Source of the DNA: Clostridia bacterium
GTDB taxonomy: Bacteria; Bacillota; Clostridia; TANB77; RGIG9151
Direction of reading: 5' to 3'
DNA: 32,000 nucleotides
Assembly: GCA_017934955.1 (NCBI GenBank)
Contig: JAGBIO010000011.1
Coordinates: 1-32,000 of the forward strand
A model generated the notes under the pieces. That model was not told the DNA's origin. It did no database searches and worked only from the letters and a program-made list of their open reading frames with translations. This document shows, piece by piece, positions 6,900-30,501 of the stretch. Numbering within the stretch: position 1 is the stretch's first letter; the number at the start of each line of letters is the position of its first letter. Both the position numbers and the translations under genes were made by a program.

Positions 6900-7081
6900 G
6901 GACACAATAAATTGTGTCCGTACAGGTAGGTAGAGGTATGATTCAAAGGTGGACAGCATGAATGCTGTCCGTACGGATACTATTGAATGAAAAGGTAGAA
7001 ATGTGATTGAATGCTGTCCGTACGGATACTATTGAATGAAAAGGTAGAAATGTGATTGTAGGGACGGCATTTATGCTGTCC
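6900..7081. repeat. REP-like palindrome cluster (relA-dtd gap)
   Basis: Type B GGACACAATAAATTGTGTCC at 6900-6919 (followed by GTAC). Type A GGACAGCATGAATGCTGTCC at 6951-6970 (followed by GTAC). A perfect 49-bp tandem duplication at 6961-7009 / 7010-7058 re-copies the right half of the palindrome. A degenerate type A, GTAG+GGACGGCATTTATGCTGTCC, is at 7058-7081. Confidence 0.95.
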
Positions 7082-22186: not shown

Positions 22187-22363
22187 ATGTCTGAAATTAA
22201 GTTAAAAGAAAATGAATCTTTAGATAATGCATTAAAGAGATTTAAGAGACAATGCGCAAAGAGCGGGGTTATGTCTGAACTCCGAAAGAGAGAGCACTAC
22301 GATAAGCCCAGTGTAAGAAGAAAGAAAAAATCTGAGGCTGCGAGAAAGAGAAAATTCAGATAG
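22187..22363 (+). CDS. rpsU: 30S ribosomal protein S21 (58 aa; below the ORF-track length cutoff)
   Basis: My own translation gives [70 protein letters not shown] lies at 22172-22179. A consensus promoter is upstream and a terminator downstream. The rpsU-yqeY pairing matches Bacillus. Confidence 0.9.
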
Positions 22364-22370
22364 AAAATTG

Positions 22371-22410
22371 AGAGGCATCCGGCGCGAAAGAATCGGACTG
22401 CCTCTTTTTT
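22371..22410 (+). terminator. intrinsic terminator after rpsU
   Basis: GAGGCATCCG ... CGGACTGCCTC (one bulge) followed by TTTTTT (22405-22410). Confidence 0.65.
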
Positions 22411-22435
22411 CGTTATTAAAAAAGGAGGAGTATAT

Positions 22436-22882
22436 ATGTCATTAAAAGATACGTTTATGGAGGAAATGAAAAACGCGATGAAGGAGAAAGACGAATTGAA
22501 GAAAAATGTTGTTACGATGGTTCGTTCGGCAATTAAGCAATATGAGGTGGATAACCGCGTGGAGTTGGATGATGCGGGGGTATTGGAGATTGTTGCGAAG
22601 GAAGTTAAAAAGAGAAAAGATTCGTTACCGGAATATGAGAAAAGCGGAAGAACCGAGTTAATTGAAAATTTGAATCGTGAGATTGCGTATTTGGCGAAGT
22701 ATTTGCCGGAACAGCTTTCAGAAGCGGAGGTAAGAGAAATTGTTGCTTCTACGATTCAGGAAATCGGTGCTGCCGGAATGAAGGATATGGGAAAAGTGAT
22801 GAGTGCCGTTATTGCTAAGACAAAGGGCAGAGCGGACGGAAAAGTGATTAACGGAATTGTGAAGGAATTGTTGAATGCTTAA
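22436..22882 (+). CDS. yqeY: GatB/YqeY domain-containing protein
   Basis: A 148-aa helical protein with a typical YqeY N-terminus (L.....MK.AMK......). It lies immediately after rpsU. AGGAGG RBS. Confidence 0.8.
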   Translation: MSLKDTFMEEMKNAMKEKDELKKNVVTMVRSAIKQYEVDNRVELDDAGVLEIVAKEVKKRKDSLPEYEKSGRTELIENLNREIAYLAKYLPEQLSEAEVREIVASTIQEIGAAGMKDMGKVMSAVIAKTKGRADGKVINGIVKELLNA

Positions 22883-22886
22883 AATA

Positions 22887-23144
22887 GTTACAGGTTAGAC
22901 TCAAATTTATAAAGAAGGCACAATCCTGTAGGGACAGCATTTATGCTGTCCACAGAAAAGGCAGAAAGGCAGGACAGCATAAATGCTGTCCCTACAAATA
23001 ACTTTCCACTGATACCGTAGGGACACAATTTATTGTGTCCTAATTCTAATAGCAGGCTATTTCGTGGACACAATAGATTGTGTCCCTACAAAGGAATACA
23101 GGACATTTCGTACATATAGAAAATTATTAAGTCTGAGCCCTAAC
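22887..23144. mobile_element. Non-coding composite element with terminal inverted repeats (MITE-like), copy E1
   Basis: The left end is GTTACAGGTTAGACTCAAATTTATAAA (22887-22913). The right end is TATAGAAAATTATTAAGTCTGAGCCCTAAC (23115-23144), which is related to it in inverted orientation. A 52-nt internal block (23017-23068) matches E2 29600-29651 at 50 of 52 positions. Confidence 0.65.
22928..23089. repeat. Two REPIN-like doublets (A-A and B-B) in the yqeY-infC gap
   Basis: A-A doublet at 22928-22995 (hairpins 22932-22951 and 22972-22991, flanked by GTAG and CTAC). B-B doublet at 23017-23089 (hairpins 23021-23040 and 23066-23085, flanked by GTAG and CTAC), with spacer TAATTCTAATAGCAGGCTATTTCGT. 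Confidence 0.95.
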
Positions 23145-23173
23145 TGAATTTGCTGTAAAAGCAAAAAAAGTGG

Positions 23174-23202
23174 TTGACAAAACTAATTTTCTGTTGTAAA
23201 AT
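23174..23202 (+). promoter_or_regulatory. sigma-A promoter for the infC-rpmI-rplT operon
   Basis: TTGACA (23174-23179), 17 nt, then TAAAAT (23197-23202). Confidence 0.65.
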
Positions 23203-23208
23203 ATTTAG

Positions 23209-23325
23209 AGTAAAGAAGAAGTTATCCACTTCTCACCTTCCGAATTTTGTTTTGGATGGTTCTGATAATTAAGTCTTGTCTTAGTTTATTTGGTGTGGAT
23301 TAACTTCGTTAATCCACATTTTTTA
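23209..23325 (+). promoter_or_regulatory. L20-leader-like 5' UTR attenuator upstream of infC
   Basis: A leader of about 130 nt lies between the promoter and infC. It ends in the hairpin GTGGATTAAC-TTCG-TTAATCCAC (23295-23317) plus ATTTTTT, immediately before the infC RBS. Firmicute infC operons are known to carry an L20-binding leader with such a terminator. I have not run a covariance model. Confidence 0.55.
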
Positions 23326-23340
23326 TTGGAGGGGATTCGT

Positions 23341-23850
23341 ATTAAAGAAGAAACAAAAATTAATGAAGAAATCAGATGTAAAGAAATTCGTGTAATCGAT
23401 TCGGATGGTACTATGCTTGGTATCATGACGCCGGATGCGGCAATGAAGATTGCGGATGAAAAGGAATTGGATTTGGTGATGATTGCGCCGACTGCGGTAC
23501 CGCCGGTTTGTAAGGTGATGGATTACGGGAAATATCGCTTTGAGGAAATGAAAAAGGAAAAAGAAGCTAAGAAAAAGCAGAAAGTTATTGATATCAAAGA
23601 AATTCGAATTTCTCCGAATATCGAACAGCATGATTTTGAATTTAAGGTAAAGAATGCGGCGTCCTTTTTGAAGAACGGAAACAAAGTGAAAATTACATTG
23701 CGTTTCAGAGGAAGAGAAGCAAGTTATGCGGCTCTTGGTGAAAAAGTATTGATGAAGTTTAAGGATGCGTTGGAAGAAGTAGGAACAGTGGAAAAGCCTC
23801 CGAAGATGGAAGGCAGAAGTATGATTATGATTGTTGTTCCAAAAAATTAG
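23341..23850 (+). CDS. infC: translation initiation factor IF-3 (non-canonical ATT start proposed)
   Basis: INEEIRCKEIRVIDSDG...DLVMIAP...PPVCKVMDYGKYRFE...IRISPNIEQHDFEFK are IF-3 motifs. The track's TTG 23290 lies inside the leader terminator hairpin. ATT 23341 lies 6 nt after GGAGGGG (23328-23334) and fits the known use of rare start codons by infC. Confidence 0.85.
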   Translation: MKEETKINEEIRCKEIRVIDSDGTMLGIMTPDAAMKIADEKELDLVMIAPTAVPPVCKVMDYGKYRFEEMKKEKEAKKKQKVIDIKEIRISPNIEQHDFEFKVKNAASFLKNGNKVKITLRFRGREASYAALGEKVLMKFKDALEEVGTVEKPPKMEGRSMIMIVVPKN

Positions 23851-23859
23851 TCAGTAGTG

Positions 23860-23948
23860 AGAATGTTCTGAGTCCGGGCGAGCACAGCTCGCCCCTACAA
23901 TGATTTTGTACAGGAATTTTGTTTGAAATTTATGTTTCAGAACATTTT
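23860..23948. mobile_element. Miniature variant of the same element carrying a different GC-rich hairpin (type C)
   Basis: A 10-bp inverted repeat, AATGTTCTGA (23862-23871) / TCAGAACATT (23937-23946), flanks the hairpin GGGCGAGC-ACA-GCTCGCCC (23876-23894). This is followed by CCCTACAATGATTTTGTACAGG...AAATTTATGTTTCAGAAC, which shares blocks with the right arm of copies A and B. Confidence 0.5.
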
Positions 23949-24040
23949 TATGAATATAAAAACTTGGTTCTGTTTGGGTTTTATGATTCTCAGGAACTGT
24001 AGTTGAAAAAATATTGTATTTAAGATAGGGGGATTTTAAC

Positions 24041-24238
24041 ATGCCAAAGATTAAAACTCGCAGAAGTGCTGCAAAAAGATTTTCGTTTACAAAGTCCGGT
24101 TTGGTAAAGAGAGCGAATGCTAACAGAAGACATTTATTAAACGGAAAAGCTCCTAAGAGAATGAGAGCTTTAAGAAAGACAAGTTTTGCAGATAAAACAA
24201 ATGTTGATGCAATCAAGAAAATGTTACCGTATGCGTAA
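24041..24238 (+). CDS. rpmI: 50S ribosomal protein L35
   Basis: MPKIKTRRSAAKRFSFTKSGLVKR is the canonical L35 N-terminus. Confidence 0.9.
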   Translation: MPKIKTRRSAAKRFSFTKSGLVKRANANRRHLLNGKAPKRMRALRKTSFADKTNVDAIKKMLPYA

Positions 24239-24271
24239 TGGTTATGAATTTTTAGTTGGGAGGAATAGAAA

Positions 24272-24625
24272 ATGGCAAGAGTAAAATCGGGTATGACAAC
24301 TCGTCAAAAACATAAAAAAGTGCTTAAAATGGCAAAAGGCTATTTCGGAGCAAAAAGCGTAAGATTCAGAATGGCGAACCAAGCGGTTATGAAGTCTTTG
24401 AACTACGCTTATATCGGAAGAAGATTAAAGAAAAGAGATTTCAGACAACTTTGGATTGCTCGAATCAATGCAGCTGCAAGAATGAATGGTATGTCTTACA
24501 GCAGATTTGTTTCGGGATTGAAGAAAGCAGGAGTAAACATTAACAGAAAAATGTTATCTGAAATTGCAATTGCTGATGCAGAAGGCTTTAAAAAATTAGT
24601 TGAAGTTGCTAAGAGCGCAAAGTAA
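24272..24625 (+). CDS. rplT: 50S ribosomal protein L20
   Basis: [27 protein letters not shown]...[24 protein letters not shown] is a classic L20 sequence. Confidence 0.9.
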
Positions 24626-24632
24626 GAAAATA

Positions 24633-24663
24633 AATAGGGTGTCATTGTGGCACTCTATTTTTA
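24633..24663 (+). terminator. intrinsic terminator of rplT
   Basis: AATAGGGTG...CACTCTATT stem (one G-U pair) followed by a T-run. Confidence 0.6.
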
Positions 24664-24741
24664 TATAATAGGAAATGTCATTTCCTATTATATAAAAACG
24701 CTCCGCAAGGAAGCACACTCGCACGTGCAGAATGGGTATGT
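24658..24741 (+). repeat. X-family repeat, 5' portion only (copy X3), preceded by a 41-nt perfect palindrome and abutted by a type A hairpin
   Basis: TATAAAAACGCTCCGCAAGGAAGCACACTCGCACGTG matches the first blocks of X1. The palindrome TTTTTATATAATAGGAAATG-T-CATTTCCTATTATATAAAAA spans 24658-24698. Homology is lost before the REP-like hairpin at 24742. Confidence 0.6.
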
Positions 24742-24761
24742 GGACAGCATGAATGCTGTCC
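24742..24761. repeat. REP-like palindrome, type A (rplT-mazG gap)
   Basis: GGACAGCATGAATGCTGTCC followed by GTAC. Confidence 0.95.
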
Positions 24762-24794
24762 GTACGTTAAGAGTAAAAGTAAGGAGGTTAAAAT

Positions 24795-25595
24795 ATGGAT
24801 TTGCATAAGGAAAGATACAGCTTTGAGGATTTTAAGGAAATTATTAAAATTTTGCGTTCGGAGAACGGATGTCCTTGGGATAAAGAGCAGACTCATAGCA
24901 GTTTGCGGAAAAATTTGATTGAAGAGTCGTATGAATTTATTCATGAGGTGGATACCGATTCAAAAGCGGGGATGTGTGAAGAACTTGGAGATGTCTTGTT
25001 GCAAGTGGTGATGCATGCCCAAATTGCTTCGGAAACGGGAGATTTTACAATGGAAGATGTGATTGATGGAATTGCGAAAAAAATGTTATTTCGCCATCCG
25101 CATGTTTTCGGGGAGAAGAAAGCGAATAATGCTGAGGAAGCGCTAGAGAGTTTTAAAGCGCAGAAGAGTAAAGAGAAAAAATATAAGAATGTGGGAGACT
25201 CATTGGAGAAAATTCCGGGAGATTTACCGGCGTTGATTAAAGTTTATAAGTTGGCTTCTCAGCTTCGTAAAATGCAGCCGGAAGTATTTAAGAGTGATGT
25301 GAATGAGTGGTTTGATAAGTTATATGCGACACTTCATGAGTTGGAGGATATGCAGGTTTTTGCGAGTGAATCGGAATTGGAAGATAAGATTGGTGAAGTT
25401 TTCGGAATCTTAGTGATGATTGGAAATATTATGGGAGTAGATTCAGAGGTTTCGGCGAATAAAGAGTTTGAGAGTACGAAAAAGCGTATTGAAAGAATTG
25501 AGGAAAAAATGCTGAAAGAGGGAGAGAAAATCGCGGAGTTATCTCCTGAAACCTTTGAAGAATACTGGGAAAAAACAAAAAATGTAGAAAAATAA
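24795..25595 (+). CDS. mazG: nucleoside triphosphate pyrophosphohydrolase MazG
   Basis: CPWDKEQTHSSLRKNLIEESYEFIHEV...ELGDVLLQVVMHA...RHPHVF is the MazG tandem-domain pattern. AAGGAGG RBS at 24781-24787. Confidence 0.8.
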   Translation: MDLHKERYSFEDFKEIIKILRSENGCPWDKEQTHSSLRKNLIEESYEFIHEVDTDSKAGMCEELGDVLLQVVMHAQIASETGDFTMEDVIDGIAKKMLFRHPHVFGEKKANNAEEALESFKAQKSKEKKYKNVGDSLEKIPGDLPALIKVYKLASQLRKMQPEVFKSDVNEWFDKLYATLHELEDMQVFASESELEDKIGEVFGILVMIGNIMGVDSEVSANKEFESTKKRIERIEEKMLKEGEKIAELSPETFEEYWEKTKNVEK

Positions 25596-25703
25596 ACATT
25601 TTTTTGAAAAAAAGAAGGAGTTTAGCGATGTAGGGCGAATATTACCAAGGAAAGTTCATTGGTTCAGATTACCAATGGCAAAATTTTATAGGAGGAATGA
25701 AAG

Positions 25704-25976
25704 ATGAACAAAGCAGATTTAGTTTCTATGATCGCTGCAAAAAGCAATTTAACAAAGAAGGATTCCGAAAGTGCATTAAACGCATTTGTTGAAACAGTAC
25801 AAAGCGCACTTAAAAAGGGAGAAAAGATTCAATTAGTTGGATTTGGTACATTTGAAGTGCGTAACAGAGCTGCAAGAAGCGGTATTAACCCAAGAACAAA
25901 ACAAGCTATCAAGATTCCTGCATCTAAGGCTCCTGTATTCAAAGCCGGAAAAGCATTAAAAGATTCTTGCAAATAA
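25704..25976 (+). CDS. hup: DNA-binding protein HU
   Basis: MNKADLVSMIA...GFGTFEVRNRAARSGINPRTKQAIKIPASKAPVFKAGKALKD matches the HU family throughout. Confidence 0.9.
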   Translation: MNKADLVSMIAAKSNLTKKDSESALNAFVETVQSALKKGEKIQLVGFGTFEVRNRAARSGINPRTKQAIKIPASKAPVFKAGKALKDSCK

Positions 25977-26004
25977 TTAAGAGTATTACAGAAAATAATA
26001 CATG

Positions 26005-26038
26005 AAAAAAACAGATGCCGAAAAGCATCTGTTTTTTT
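26005..26038. terminator. bidirectional intrinsic terminator between convergent hup and the CBM25-like gene
   Basis: AAAAAAA-ACAGATGC-CGAAAA-GCATCTGT-TTTTTTT. The A-run and T-run allow it to function on both strands. Confidence 0.8.
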
Positions 26039-26044
26039 CATGTA

Positions 26045-26416
26045 TTATTCATTACAATATACGTAATTATTTCCGTTATTATTATCCCAATTATTGCATG
26101 TATCTTTGAAGCAAAGATTTAATGAAGAATAATCTGCTGTGATGGTTGCTGTGAATCCTGATTTTGTTTTTGACATTTTTACGTCGTTTACGTTGTCCCA
26201 ATTATCTCCCCAGCCAATATGAGCATAAATTTCATCAGCTCCGGCTTGTGAAAGTAAACCGTTGTAAGTTACTTTAATTTTGTCGCCGTAGGAAAAAGAT
26301 GTAGGGCTTACTGTGATTCCGTTGCTCTTGTAAGGGTTTGCAGCTACCGAATTTGTTTTAACGGAGCTTGTCTTTGTTGAGCGAGCGGATGTTGTAGTGG
26401 TTTTCTTTAATGGCAT
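26045..26416 (-). CDS. small single-domain protein resembling a CBM25-type starch/glycogen-binding module
   Basis: VTYNG...IYAHIGWG..W..V.DVKM......F.ATI......LNLCFKD...NWDNNNGNNY matches the CBM25/CBM53 consensus ending in WDNNxGxNY (from memory). The S/T/K-rich N-terminus has no signal peptide. GGAG RBS. It shares a bidirectional terminator with hup. Confidence 0.55.
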   Translation of the reverse strand: MPLKKTTTTSARSTKTSSVKTNSVAANPYKSNGITVSPTSFSYGDKIKVTYNGLLSQAGADEIYAHIGWGDNWDNVNDVKMSKTKSGFTATITADYSSLNLCFKDTCNNWDNNNGNNYVYCNE

Positions 26417-26737
26417 CTATAACACTCCTTTCGAAAAATACTTAAATACATCTTATTTTCTTTTTTTAATTTTTTTTATGCAACACTTATTTTTGACAAA
26501 TTCAAGAAATTATATTCTGTTTGCTTCCGAAAACTTTGAATTTCTTTAAAAAGCTATTAGTTAAGTCGCTTTTTGCTGAAATAAGATAGAATAAGTATGT
26601 AGAAAAGCAGTATTATGCGAAAAAAGATGTCGGAAAAAATAATAAAGGATAAATTAAAGTTGTGTTACAAATTTTTGAAAAAGATGGACAAGGTAGAAAA
26701 AAAACGGTACAATAAGGAAGGAATAGGAGGGATACGA

Positions 26738-27667
26738 ATGAAAAAATTATTTTTGCTGATTTTTTGTTTTTTAATGATAAATATATCTTATGCGGAAGCA
26801 GTAAATTATATACAGTCGATTGATGTTATTTCGGGAAACGGTACAAGCACTGTAATAAAAACGTCCGCTCCGATTCAGTATAAAGTTGGAAAATTAACAG
26901 CGAATCAAAAATTGTATTTTGATTTTCAAGATACTATTTTGCGAGAAAAGAAGTCGATTCCTGTTGGGAAAAATAATATTATTTCGGTAAGAGCGGCACA
27001 AAATATGACAAAACCTTCGTATGTGACTCGTGTGGTTTTTGATATGACCGAGTTAACGGACTATACGGCAGTATTATCGGAGGATAAACAAACCTTAACG
27101 ATATCGCTTGGGTCCGGAGAAGAGATTGTGAAGAAAAAGATTGTTCTGGATCCGGGACATGGCGGAAGTGATCCGGGGGCGGTTGTATCGGATTTGAGTG
27201 AAAAACATTTGAATTTGGATATTGCAACGAGATTACAAACCTTATTGGAAGCAGATGGACGTTTTGAGGTTATTATGACAAGAACTTCGGATGTGTTTGT
27301 GGCTTTATTGGAAAGAGCAGAAATTGCAAATAAAAATAAAGCAGATTTGTTTGTTTGTATTCATAACAATTCTATGCCGACCGGCTTTAAGGGTGTTATG
27401 ACGTTATATAACGATACAAAATTAGCATCAAATAAAGAGTTGGCAAATATTTTTCAAGAAAAATTGGAAAAGAAGTTAAATATGGGAAGTATTGGTACAA
27501 GATTGAGAACGGATTTGGTAGTATTGAAAAATATTGAAGTGCCGGGGATTTTAGTAGAGGTTGCATGTATGACAAACTTGATGGAAAGGCGTGCACTTAG
27601 AACAGAGACGTTCCGTCAAAATGCGGCGCAAGCAATTTATGATTCGATTGTAACGGCGACATTGTGA
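26738..27667 (+). CDS. N-acetylmuramoyl-L-alanine amidase (Amidase_3 family) with signal peptide and N-terminal AMIN-like domain
   Basis: LDPGHGGSDPGA, ADLFVCIHNNS and LVEVACMTN are Amidase_3 motifs. The start was moved to ATG 26738 (MKKLFLLIFCFLMINISYAEA), 6 nt after AGGAGGG. The track's 26615 start adds a Lys-rich extension with no RBS. Confidence 0.8.
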   Translation: MKKLFLLIFCFLMINISYAEAVNYIQSIDVISGNGTSTVIKTSAPIQYKVGKLTANQKLYFDFQDTILREKKSIPVGKNNIISVRAAQNMTKPSYVTRVVFDMTELTDYTAVLSEDKQTLTISLGSGEEIVKKKIVLDPGHGGSDPGAVVSDLSEKHLNLDIATRLQTLLEADGRFEVIMTRTSDVFVALLERAEIANKNKADLFVCIHNNSMPTGFKGVMTLYNDTKLASNKELANIFQEKLEKKLNMGSIGTRLRTDLVVLKNIEVPGILVEVACMTNLMERRALRTETFRQNAAQAIYDSIVTATL

Positions 27668-27704
27668 TTTTTGTAATAAGAAGGCTTGTTTTGAATAGAA
27701 TGAA

Positions 27705-27729
27705 ATAGAGCGTAGTTGCTCTATTTTTT
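27705..27729 (+). terminator. intrinsic terminator after the amidase gene
   Basis: ATAGAGC-GTAGTT-GCTCTAT followed by TTTTT. Confidence 0.65.
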
Positions 27730-27749
27730 CTTGTTTACGGAGTTTATTT

Positions 27750-28790
27750 ATGAAGAAGATCGGTCTTTTTGCTTTCTTATTTTTTATGCTTTTAGTGTTT
27801 CATTTTTTTGCTAAGGTTGCTTTTCAGAATGTGACGGTTGCAAAATTGATTCTTTCGGATGGGATTCCGTTGATAAAAATAGCGATGAATGAGACGGGAA
27901 ATTTTACTATGCTTTCTTATGTGGATTTGATTAAAAATCGTTTTGCGAGTGAAGATATTTTTATTGAATTGCCGGAAGATTCGGTGGAATTGATTCCGGA
28001 GGAAGTGAAACAGGAAGATATTGTGAAGGAAATGGAAGAGGAGGATAATCATACAAAATCGGTTACGATGGATTGGTCGAGAGTTCTGAAGAATGAAACA
28101 AAGTATGCTGTTAATGCGGAAGATTTGGTAAACAAAAAGTTGAGTTTCAGTTTGACAAAATTTGACGTGAATGTTTTGATTTATCATACGCATACGACGG
28201 AAAGCTATACGCAAAGCAAAGATTATAAGTATGTTGCTTCGGGAGATTTTCGAACGTTGGAGCTGAATGCGAATATGAGCAGAGTTGGGGCGTACTTAGC
28301 GGAGTTGCTGGAGGCGAAAGGGATAAAGACTTATCATGACAAAACGGTTTATGACAGTCCTTCTTATAATCTTTCTTACAGCAAGGCGGGTAAAGCGATT
28401 ACTGCCTTAAAAAAGAAATATCCCAAAGCTTCCGTCGTGTTGGATGTCCATCGAGATGCAATTGGGACGGCGGAGGAAATTTATCGTCCGATTGTGAATA
28501 TTGACGGACGGGATGTGGCGCAGATTCTTTTGGTGGTTGGAACGAATCAAGGAGGATTGACACATAACAATTGGCGGGAAAATTTGAAGTTTGCGCTCAA
28601 ACTTCAGAAAGTAGCGAATGAAGAATATCCGGGATTTTGCCGATATGTGGATTTGAGGAAGGAACGATTTAATCAACATGTTGCACCGGGCGCTGTGATT
28701 GTGGAAATGGGTGCGACAGGAAATACGATGGAAGAGGCTTTGGCGGCAGCAGAGTTGTTTGCAAATGTTTTGGAGAAAGTGATGAAATAG
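27750..28790 (+). CDS. spoIIP: stage II sporulation protein P
   Basis: N-terminal TM segment, then VLIYHTHTTESY...VLDVHRDA...NQHVAPGAVIVEMG, which are characteristic SpoIIP motifs. Confidence 0.8.
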   Translation: MKKIGLFAFLFFMLLVFHFFAKVAFQNVTVAKLILSDGIPLIKIAMNETGNFTMLSYVDLIKNRFASEDIFIELPEDSVELIPEEVKQEDIVKEMEEEDNHTKSVTMDWSRVLKNETKYAVNAEDLVNKKLSFSLTKFDVNVLIYHTHTTESYTQSKDYKYVASGDFRTLELNANMSRVGAYLAELLEAKGIKTYHDKTVYDSPSYNLSYSKAGKAITALKKKYPKASVVLDVHRDAIGTAEEIYRPIVNIDGRDVAQILLVVGTNQGGLTHNNWRENLKFALKLQKVANEEYPGFCRYVDLRKERFNQHVAPGAVIVEMGATGNTMEEALAAAELFANVLEKVMK

Positions 28791-28800
28791 AGAGGAAGGA

Positions 28801-29523
28801 ATGAATATGGCAAGGAGATTTATAGTAGAGGGAAATCCGGAGGGAAGGTTTACGATAGCGGAGAAAGAGGCGCGACATATTTTTGTTTTACGTCATAAGG
28901 TTGGAGATGTGATTCAGGTAAATAATAAACTGTGTGAAATTATTGCAATGCAAAAAGATGAGGTTATTTGCGATGTTGTCGGAGAGGCGGAAATAAGAGG
29001 TGTTCCGGATACAAAAATCACTTTATTTCAAGCACTTTTGAAAGCGGATAAAATGGAGTTTGTGATTCAAAAAGCAGTTGAATTGGGAGTAACTTCAGTT
29101 GTCCCTTTTGTCAGTAAAAACGTGGTGGTGAAATTAGAGGGTAAGGATAAAGCGAAGAAATCAGAACGTTGGAATAAAATTAGCGTGGAGGCGTCGAAAC
29201 AGTGCGGTCGAAGCGATATTGTTCCGGTTTCGGAAATTTTGAGTTTTGAGGAAATGCTAACGACGTTTCAGGAGTATGATTTGGTGTTGTTTGCTTATGA
29301 GAATGAGAAAGAATCGTTAAAGGAAGTATTGCAGGGTCGGGGAAAGGGAAAGAGAATTGCTGTTGTGATTGGTGCAGAAGGTGGATTTGATGCTACTGAG
29401 GCAGAGCGTGTGATGAAAGCAGGAGAGAATGTAAAGTCGGTGAGTTTGGGTGACCGAATTTTACGTGCTGAGACAGCGAGTTTGTTTTTGTTGTCGGTGT
29501 TGATGTATGAGTGTGAGGAGTAG
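28801..29523 (+). CDS. rsmE: 16S rRNA (uracil1498-N3)-methyltransferase RsmE
   Basis: ARRFIVEG N-terminus, QALLKADKMEFVIQKAVELGV, IGAEGGF, and LGDRILRAETA. ATG 28807 is an equally good start. Confidence 0.8.
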   Translation: MNMARRFIVEGNPEGRFTIAEKEARHIFVLRHKVGDVIQVNNKLCEIIAMQKDEVICDVVGEAEIRGVPDTKITLFQALLKADKMEFVIQKAVELGVTSVVPFVSKNVVVKLEGKDKAKKSERWNKISVEASKQCGRSDIVPVSEILSFEEMLTTFQEYDLVLFAYENEKESLKEVLQGRGKGKRIAVVIGAEGGFDATEAERVMKAGENVKSVSLGDRILRAETASLFLLSVLMYECEE

Positions 29524-29539
29524 GGCTTGTTTTGCATTG

Positions 29540-29769
29540 GTTTATTCATACTTAAATTTATAAAAATGGTTGTACAAACCGCTTTCTGCTGTTATTTTTG
29601 TAGGGACACAATTCATTGTGTCCTAATTCTAATAGCAGGCTATTCCGTGGAAAGTCATTTGTAGGGACAGCATTCATGCTGTCCTACATTCCGCATTTTC
29701 TGTGGACAGCATAAATGCTGTCCCTACAGTGTTTATACCATTTTTATAGCTTTAAGCCTGACTTGTAAC
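29540..29769. mobile_element. Non-coding composite element with terminal inverted repeats (MITE-like), copy E2
   Basis: The 25-nt ends at 29546-29570 (TCATACTTAAATTTATAAAAATGGT) and 29737-29761 (ACCATTTTTATAGCTTTAAGCCTGA) are reverse complements at 21 of 25 positions. The interior consists only of three REP-like hairpins plus spacers. There is no ORF. Confidence 0.7.
29600..29727. repeat. REP-like palindromes (rsmE-PilZ gap)
   Basis: Type B at 29604-29623 (GTAG+). An A-A doublet at 29661-29727 (hairpins 29665-29684 and 29704-29723). Its spacer is the reverse complement of the spacer used at 12725-12745 and 22952-22971. Confidence 0.95.
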
Positions 29770-29797
29770 GACCCTCATGCGAAATCGCTTGCTTAGG

Positions 29798-29826
29798 TTG
29801 ACAATAAAAGGGAATATCGGTATAAT
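29798..29826 (+). promoter_or_regulatory. consensus sigma-A promoter for the PilZ-queA unit
   Basis: TTGACA (29798-29803), exactly 17 nt, then TATAAT (29821-29826). It lies just outside the right end of element E2. Confidence 0.7.
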
Positions 29827-29847
29827 AGAAAACGGAGTGTGAATGGG

Positions 29848-30501
29848 ATGGGAAACATAAAGTTAAGGGATTTTTTGGATGTGCAAAGTACGGTAAAAAC
29901 GGGGCTTCCGAAGTCTACAGATTGCATTTTGAATACGGTTACTGCGATTTATGAGGAACGGGGTGAGGTTGAGATTAAGTTTGATGAACGTTATGTTGCG
30001 GCTCTTACGATGGTGGGAGATGATTTGCGTGTAACGAAAACATTGGATGGATATGAATATGTGATGGATACGACGATTATTAAGATTCAAATTGAGCCGA
30101 CGAAGAGTATGGTTTTGAAAGTGCATTCGATTAATCGGTATACGAATTTGAGAAAGGATGAAAGATATTCGGTTAATTATGCGGTGACGATTCAGAGTTT
30201 TTCGGAGGAAGATGGAATTTTTGGAGTGGTTGTGAATATCAGCGTTTCGGGACTTGCCTTTGTTTGTCGGCATAATTTTATTGTAGGGGAAACCGTTCGT
30301 TTGTCGATTCTGCTTCCTGCCAGCACGTTTACGATCGATGGCGAGATTGTGCGAGTGACGGATTCTACAAAGGGAAACGAGTATGGTGTGAAGTTTTTAC
30401 GTGAAGATGAGGATGCGATTCGCGACGTAAAAGAGTTGATTGAAAATATTAAGGAGAGAGAGGACAGGCTTTCACGTATTGTGGGCTATCATATATTGTA
30501 A
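29848..30501 (+). CDS. PilZ-domain c-di-GMP receptor, two-domain YcgR/MotI-like architecture
   Basis: RxxxR (LRKDERY) followed by the N-x-S-x-x-G motif ([10 protein letters not shown]) in the C-terminal half. A ~100-aa N-terminal beta-rich domain precedes it. ATG 29848 is preferred over the track's GTG 29839 (GGAG at 29834-29837). A consensus promoter lies at 29798-29826. Confidence 0.7.

Follow-up and report, generated by a model that had tools for sequence, protein, structure and literature searches.

The window, i.e. the whole stretch of DNA analyzed here (32,000 nt; positions 1 to 32,000 of contig JAGBIO010000011.1, referred to as C33), belongs to the genome of an uncultured gut Clostridia bacterium (G000), a short-read metagenome assembly of 1.57 Mb in 35 contigs that is 99.7% complete. 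Almost all genes of the window are on the + strand, and its GC skew is very strong (~+0.35). It carries two composite repeats, E1 and E2, built from modules of the same kinds: arms with 15-nt terminal inverted repeats, head-to-head doublets of A or B hairpins, and a link between them (Table 1). Both end 29–30 nt upstream of a strong sigma-70-type −35 box (23144–23202 and 29769–29826); the promoter past E1 serves infC with its L20 leader (11/12 consensus matches), and the one past E2 serves a gene for a PilZ-domain protein (12/12). The features listed in a preliminary description of E1 and E2 (modules, coordinates, a nearly identical block and inverted ends) are all present as given, including the second B hairpin of E2, which stops after GGA and is followed by a piece of the link and the A-A doublet (29649–29727).

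Table 1. Modules of E1 and E2 (window coordinates) and the two RAYT-like genes of G000 (contig:position)
Feature	Coordinates	Strand	Remarks
E1, whole element	22887–23144	+	
E1 common arm (La)	22887–22927	+	15-nt terminal inverted repeat 22887–22901; >100 genomic arm copies with a sharp outer boundary
E1 A-A doublet	22928–22995	+	Head-to-head REP pair; folds as a single long hairpin
E1 GTAG + first A hairpin	22928–22951	+	
E1 A-A spacer (20 nt)	22952–22971	+	Purine-rich
E1 second A hairpin + CTAC	22972–22995	+	
E1 link L1 (21 nt)	22996–23016	+	Tail-to-tail linker between A and B hairpins
E1 B-B doublet	23017–23089	+	GTAG + B hairpin, 25-nt spacer, B hairpin + CTAC
E1 GTAG + first B hairpin	23017–23040	+	
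E1 B-B spacer (25 nt)	23041–23065	+	Reverse complement of the E2 spacer in the arm-oriented frame
E1 second B hairpin + CTAC	23066–23089	+	
E1 second arm (type Ra4) + end	23090–23144	+	Degenerate terminal repeat 23130–23144
E2, whole element	29540–29769	Inverted relative to E1	
E2 B-side arm	29540–29599	+	Degenerate La-like end; 20-nt piece found nowhere else in the genome
E2 GTAG + B hairpin	29600–29623	+	
E2 B-B spacer (25 nt)	29624–29648	+	
E2 remnant GGA of second B hairpin	29649–29651	+	
E2 deletion junction	29647–29660	+	GTGGA microhomology 29647–29651, then last 9 nt of link L1 (29652–29660)
E2 A-A doublet	29661–29727	+	Opposite to E1 on the + strand; collinear after reverse-complementing E2
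E2 common arm (La)	29728–29769	−	Terminal repeat 29755–29769
RAYT-like gene 1	C22:48449–48943		Between gatB and miaB; A-type REPs on both sides
RAYT-like gene 2	C32:423–1043 (L002:423–1043)		Flanked by C-type REPs

The 52-nt block shared by the two elements (23017–23068 and 29600–29651) is identical at 50 of 52 positions (96%); in opposite orientation, they also share the A-A doublet and its flank (inverted matches of 41 nt at 95% and 47 nt at 89% identity). The ends of E1 match each other at 11/15 positions, and the left end of E2 is degenerate. Both elements fold far better than shuffled controls (z = −11.8 for E1 and −10.2 for E2), with each doublet predicted as one long hairpin. Searches of Rfam returned no family for E1 or E2, only sub-threshold hairpin look-alikes.

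The similarity between E1 and E2 is far beyond chance: ~1040 of the same hairpins are found genome-wide, and a control pattern gave 0 matches. They fall into types A (~665), B (~290) and a third type C (~70–105), the counts depending on the matching criterion; the stems are 8–9 bp long, those of A and B differing by two compensated base pairs, and of ~1000 oriented hairpins nearly all have a 5′ foot that reads GTAG or GTAC. Within the window, 26 of the 28 hairpins lie outside long ORFs, which make up 77% of its length. Among neighboring hairpins, 235 pairs are head-to-head, 146 are tail-to-tail and 168 are in tandem, and particular spacers and links recur among them, a grammar described for BIMEs (PMC3333891) and for GTAG dimers (PMC3733652). 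A shell bounded by terminal inverted repeats (TIR) encloses roughly one in three hairpins; the other ~2/3 are shell-free and without conserved flanks. The A hairpin has 669 matches in G000 and none in 30 relatives, seven congeners included. The exact 24-nt unit made of GTAG plus the A hairpin occurs sparsely in metagenome-assembled genomes of other phyla, where the shell is absent. Its carriers (L050–L066) comprise a Clostridiales genome of 63% GC (RUG103) and genomes of Anaerolineae and Phototrophicaceae, in which it is a sparse singleton or part of a heterodimer with other stems, and MITE ends are absent.

Both RAYT-like genes of G000 match the NCBIfam model REP_Tyr_transpos (NF047646) with E ~1e-17, at 64 and 63 bits, under the 80-bit cut-off, and the gene on C22 passes the Pfam Y1_Tnp threshold (30.9 bits). 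Among proteins of solved structure (PDB), TnpAREP of E. coli (4ER8) is their best relative. They have the HUH motif and keep a tyrosine aligned with Y115, the catalytic Tyr of the 4ER8 chain. The reading frame on C32 holds two in-frame C-type REP hairpins, mutually inverted, near L002:645–670 and 826–851, that is, on either side of the HUH motif. The hairpins are a GTAG-tagged REP population linked to these two Y1 transposase genes, following the REP/RAYT pattern.

The shell enclosing part of the hairpins is a MITE family with a 15-nt TIR, whose arm, present in >100 copies across the genome, has a sharp outer boundary. A perfect 8-bp target duplication flanks 33 of the 101 paired ends, and one with a single mismatch flanks 12 more (45/101). 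HUH transposition is not known to yield such duplications. Three other genomes carry these shell ends with perfect 8-bp duplications and REP-free interiors: the congener G005, and G049 and G122, which belong to another family of the order. Since shells without REPs occur elsewhere and hairpins without shells abound in G000, shell and cargo are separable; the shell is an element separate from the REPs, and an older one. The 8-bp duplication is compatible with an IS66-family origin. No match to PF03050 (IS66-type DDE) was found in G000, and no pair of ends 0.5–4 kb apart with a duplication, as expected for an autonomous IS, of which unassembled copies may exist. E1 and E2 themselves show no target duplication at any offset tried, so that their membership in the MITE family is assigned by ends and arms, and any transposition of them as composites is hypothetical. 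At C27:95714–96053 (L028), two MITEs lie in tandem, one with an A-A and one with a B-B cargo, and the same 8-bp duplication is present three times, which suggests repeated insertion at one target.

We then compared the arrangement of the modules. When oriented by the common arm, E1(+), E2(rc), C34:17893–18154(rc) and C23:29323–29579(rc) align end to end in the order arm, A-A doublet, 21-nt link, B-B doublet and second arm. E1 and E2 were previously thought to carry their modules in different orders; since E1(+) and E2(rc) are collinear, the difference seen on the + strand is only the orientation of the whole element. At C34:18025 and C35:28627, too, a B and an A hairpin are connected by the link, half of which is kept in E2. 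The B–link–A adjacency is an inherited arrangement common to at least four copies (E1, E2, C34 and C35:28627). Note that the 50/52 identity is not special to E1 and E2, as other block copies are equally similar (C33:153861–153912 is also 50/52 identical to E1); a direct recent exchange between the two as the source of their similarity is thus rejected. A reciprocal inversion between E1 and E2 was also rejected, the flanking 8-mers not matching in the expected swapped pattern, and a search for ectopic recombination partners with swapped target duplications gave matches at noise level only.

With a probability that we put at about 60%, E1 and E2 are best explained by one composite ancestor followed by small local events. 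This ancestor would have been a MITE shell, with the 15-nt TIR and the 8-bp duplications of the family, carrying A-A and B-B REP doublets joined through the 21-nt link. Descent from one composite requires additional exchanges, given that the four copies with the link have unlike outer arms. Three differences separate E1 from E2: a deletion in E2, the orientation of the B-B spacer, and the type of the B-side arm.

Relative to E1 and C34:17893–18154, E2 is missing 33 nt, which comprise the second B hairpin with its CTAC and 12 nt from the start of the link. The stretch absent from E2 sits, in the C34 copy, exactly between two intact GTGGA direct repeats, and removing the 33 nt between these words gives the E2 junction with 1 substitution. 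The lone B hairpin of E2 is the derived state, because the other 5 copies of its spacer type (one of them, C33:159397, degenerate) all lie between two B hairpins, and spacers of 25–26 nt, found in 61 head-to-head doublets, belong essentially to the B-B class. The preliminary description had considered that the A-A unit inserted into or next to a B hairpin. Such an insertion would leave the rest of the B hairpin past the insert; no remainder is found beyond the A-A doublet of E2, and the junction is that of the 33-nt GTGGA–GTGGA deletion, so an insertion is not supported. What does stand is that E1 and E2 are related mosaics and that a rearrangement junction lies at a hairpin foot in E2.

The cause of the deletion would most likely be replication slippage across the hairpin. 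Alternatively, a RAYT transposase may have cut at hairpin feet or linkers and transferred strands, leaving the B doublet truncated in E2 and flipped or exchanged in E1. Such a role, which we consider possible though rather unlikely, would be in line with the REP-flanked position of the two RAYT-like genes and their HUH motif and aligned catalytic Tyr, with the junctions at hairpin feet and with the 89-nt insert in 29 hairpin loops (see below); TnpAREP cleaves inverted REPs and linkers in vitro, strand transfer leading to linker variability (PMC3333891). However, the 5-nt microhomology at the E2 junction is a usual mark of slippage and is unneeded for HUH chemistry, other deletions in the family also lie between short direct repeats, several of them of 3–10 nt (C2:26073; C5:25980, an empty shell; C27:38791; and the 110-bp copy C33:37840–37949), and no cleavage-site motif could be defined in the G000 hairpins. 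The sequence alone does not separate slippage from RAYT-catalyzed cleavage and rejoining, and the assignment of an enzyme or a replication error to each event is our inference.

In the arm-oriented frame, the 25-nt B-B spacer of E1 is the reverse complement of the E2 spacer at 24/25 positions. Under the preferred reading of a common composite ancestor, the spacer between the inverted B hairpins would have flipped in E1 or, alternatively, the whole doublet would have been exchanged. Flipped spacers relative to the shell are also observed in ~10% of in-shell A-A doublets, in at least 2 arm subfamilies. REP doublet spacers and MITE shells are ~76–88% co-oriented with the G-rich strand; setting of the spacer orientation by the replication strand was considered and rejected, as the A-A spacer of shells opposing the GC skew was oriented with the shell in 9 out of 11 instances.

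E1 and E2 also differ in the type of their B-side arm. In E1, 47 nt from the start of this arm (23090–23136) are identical to C18:360–406, the arm of the B-B MITE subfamily (copy at C18:244–414). Genome-wide, almost all arm types are found next to A as well as B hairpins. As A and B are distinguished by four coordinated differences, this reassortment of arms and hairpins, which resembles that of E. coli BIMEs, indicates exchange and not recurrent mutation. The B-side arm would thus have been replaced, probably by recombination or gene conversion with family members at shared hairpins. Recombination between hairpins, which had been invoked to account for shuffled modules, fits the inverted spacer and the differing arm types as an exchange or conversion between family members; it did not reorder the modules.

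The composites could also have been assembled independently and in place, from REP doublets or whole MITEs inserted nested or adjacent to one another with subsequent loss of the inner ends. Precedents for single steps exist, in the tandem MITEs with a shared duplication on C27, in a fusion at C4:27397 in which both inner ends are lost and in one arm variant that contains link-like sequence, and neither E1 nor E2 has a target duplication. Nevertheless, the B–link–A junction of the four copies would need to be recreated four times, and a remnant of the second B hairpin would be expected past the A-A doublet of E2, where none is seen; we therefore hold independent assembly to be improbable.

We also considered an assembly artefact, in which short metagenomic reads would have been joined into a chimeric path through the abundant repeats, making part of the composite structure spurious. 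Compared with positions 22300–30100, every Logan contig from four runs is interrupted within E1 and E2, and no contig spans either element; the joints that they contain have sides of <30 nt and probably derive from other copies. Moreover, several G000 contigs end in the same repeat, and yqeY and infC are adjacent in none of the relatives searched. Scans for strain variants, run on metagenome contigs with the 3′ flank of yqeY and with the link–REP junction, gave no matches. On the other hand, the internal junctions carry copy-specific sequence (the link variant of E1 and the unique 20-nt piece of E2), the same architecture is found at C34 and C23, and contigs from independent samples match two E1 segments without differences, one from the flank to the first hairpin and one from the B-B doublet to the arm. 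An artefact is therefore very improbable. Contigs of an independent study reproduce the two outer parts of E1 and of E2; together with the missing target duplications, this indicates that E1 and E2 are not brand-new insertions.

Turnover of the family is visible throughout the genome. Among the 153-bp copies, the median identity is 80% over all pairs and 92% to the nearest neighbor, with a few pairs at 97–99%. In the window, a REP unit and its flank form a perfect 49-nt tandem duplication (6959–7056), a sign of very recent local amplification. These closely related pairs and the 49-nt duplication indicate turnover that continues on a species scale; the earlier suggestion that the system has been dynamic recently holds within the genome only. 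MITE fusions include the adjacent copies on C27 and the copy on C4 described above.

In 29 hairpins of type A or B, the loop harbors a unit of 89 nt, inserted in either orientation (e.g. C35:22573–22663), a true nested insertion; none is present in the window, the nearest being at C33:96043–96130. It matches no Rfam family, giving only sub-threshold hairpin look-alikes. In the congeners G002, G003 and G006, a related unit is found only between rpsN and rpsH, in 1–2 tandem copies (L034:1501–1700 and L036:1501–1650), and compensatory changes are seen in its stems, around a GAACGNAGTGA loop that is conserved. In G000, REPs occupy the rpsN–rpsH spacer in place of the unit. Capture and subsequent amplification of a conserved structured element may explain the 89-nt unit. 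One may speculate that the REP hairpins are shared docking or recombination points for three nested mobile layers, and that strand transfer by RAYT, not host slippage, reshuffles the MITE cargo, a proposal to which we give little credence. The layers, equally tentative and unlikely as a set, would be the RAYT-driven REPs, a DDE-type MITE shell acting as a vehicle for REP doublets, and the 89-nt unit, single-locus in congeners and at 29 copies here.

E1 also stands at the left edge of a 15-kb block (C33:22887–37949), at the right edge of which lies the 110-bp MITE (C33:37840–37949). The two edge elements have the same orientation and outward-facing ends. A composite-transposon reading of this block was examined, and no target duplication was found around it. 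In the congener G002 (L047, G002:C4), yqeY is followed by a terminator, tRNA-Met and tRNA-Tyr; the corresponding spacer of G000 is split by the 15-kb block.

Comparison with known systems shows that this one works like E. coli BIMEs and Pseudomonas REPINs, with a MITE shell added. As in the E. coli REP/BIME and TnpAREP system (PMC3333891; 4ER8), GTAG-tagged hairpins alternate in orientation, spacers between head-to-head hairpins and linkers between tail-to-tail ones are conserved, linkers and copy number can vary, the stems of the several hairpin types differ by compensated changes, and a Y1 transposase gene is flanked by its REPs. In contrast to E. coli, the system resides in a low-GC Clostridia genome, its stems are short perfect palindromes of 8–9 bp, a TIR-bounded shell with 8-bp duplications, which BIMEs do not have, encloses about a third of the hairpins, and the RAYT stays under the NCBIfam cut-off (64 versus 80 bits). 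With the REPINs of Pseudomonas fluorescens (PMC3116915), it shares inverted REP pairs with a conserved spacer that form one long hairpin, singlets resembling decayed doublets and a single-copy RAYT per REP type, whereas the chaining of two doublet types by linkers, their carriage in MITE shells and the many free singlets with a GTAC instead of a GTAG foot are particular to G000. The GTAG-15 dimers of Anabaena variabilis (Di Nocera et al. 2013, PMC3733652) are likewise REP dimers enclosed by a larger inverted-repeat sequence, and the same survey describes hetero- and hybrid dimers and deleted spacers; however, the enclosing palindrome was not found REP-free there and no target duplications were reported, while the present shell occurs REP-free in other genomes and with 8-bp duplications. 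Compared to bacterial MITEs (Correia/NEMIS, RUP, bcr1, Nezha; PMC3733652), the elements are similarly 100–260 bp long, non-coding and intergenic, with 15-nt terminal inverted repeats and fixed-length target duplications, but their interior consists of REP hairpins of a second mobile system, the search of G000 gave no autonomous partner, and E1 and E2 have no duplication. In the REP/REPIN/RAYT literature searched, Clostridia are hardly treated and Firmicutes go unmentioned; a single paper (PMC5581495) notes that Clostridia have Group 1 RAYTs.

This analysis newly shows that E1 and E2 are collinear, that E2 has a deletion at a microhomology and that the B-B spacer of E1 is inverted, and it tabulates the reassortment of arms with hairpins. 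The differences between E1 and E2 are ordinary repeat turnover and not a new mechanism; they provide a worked example of REP/BIME-type mosaic diversification in a Clostridia genome, in which apparent module shuffling between composite repeats can reduce to strand orientation and two small events. With a RAYT-linked repeat nested in a cut-and-paste shell, possible cooperation between two unrelated transposition machineries could also be studied in a natural setting. Annotators should be aware that nearly every intergenic spacer in this genome holds such elements, often <30 nt from promoters.
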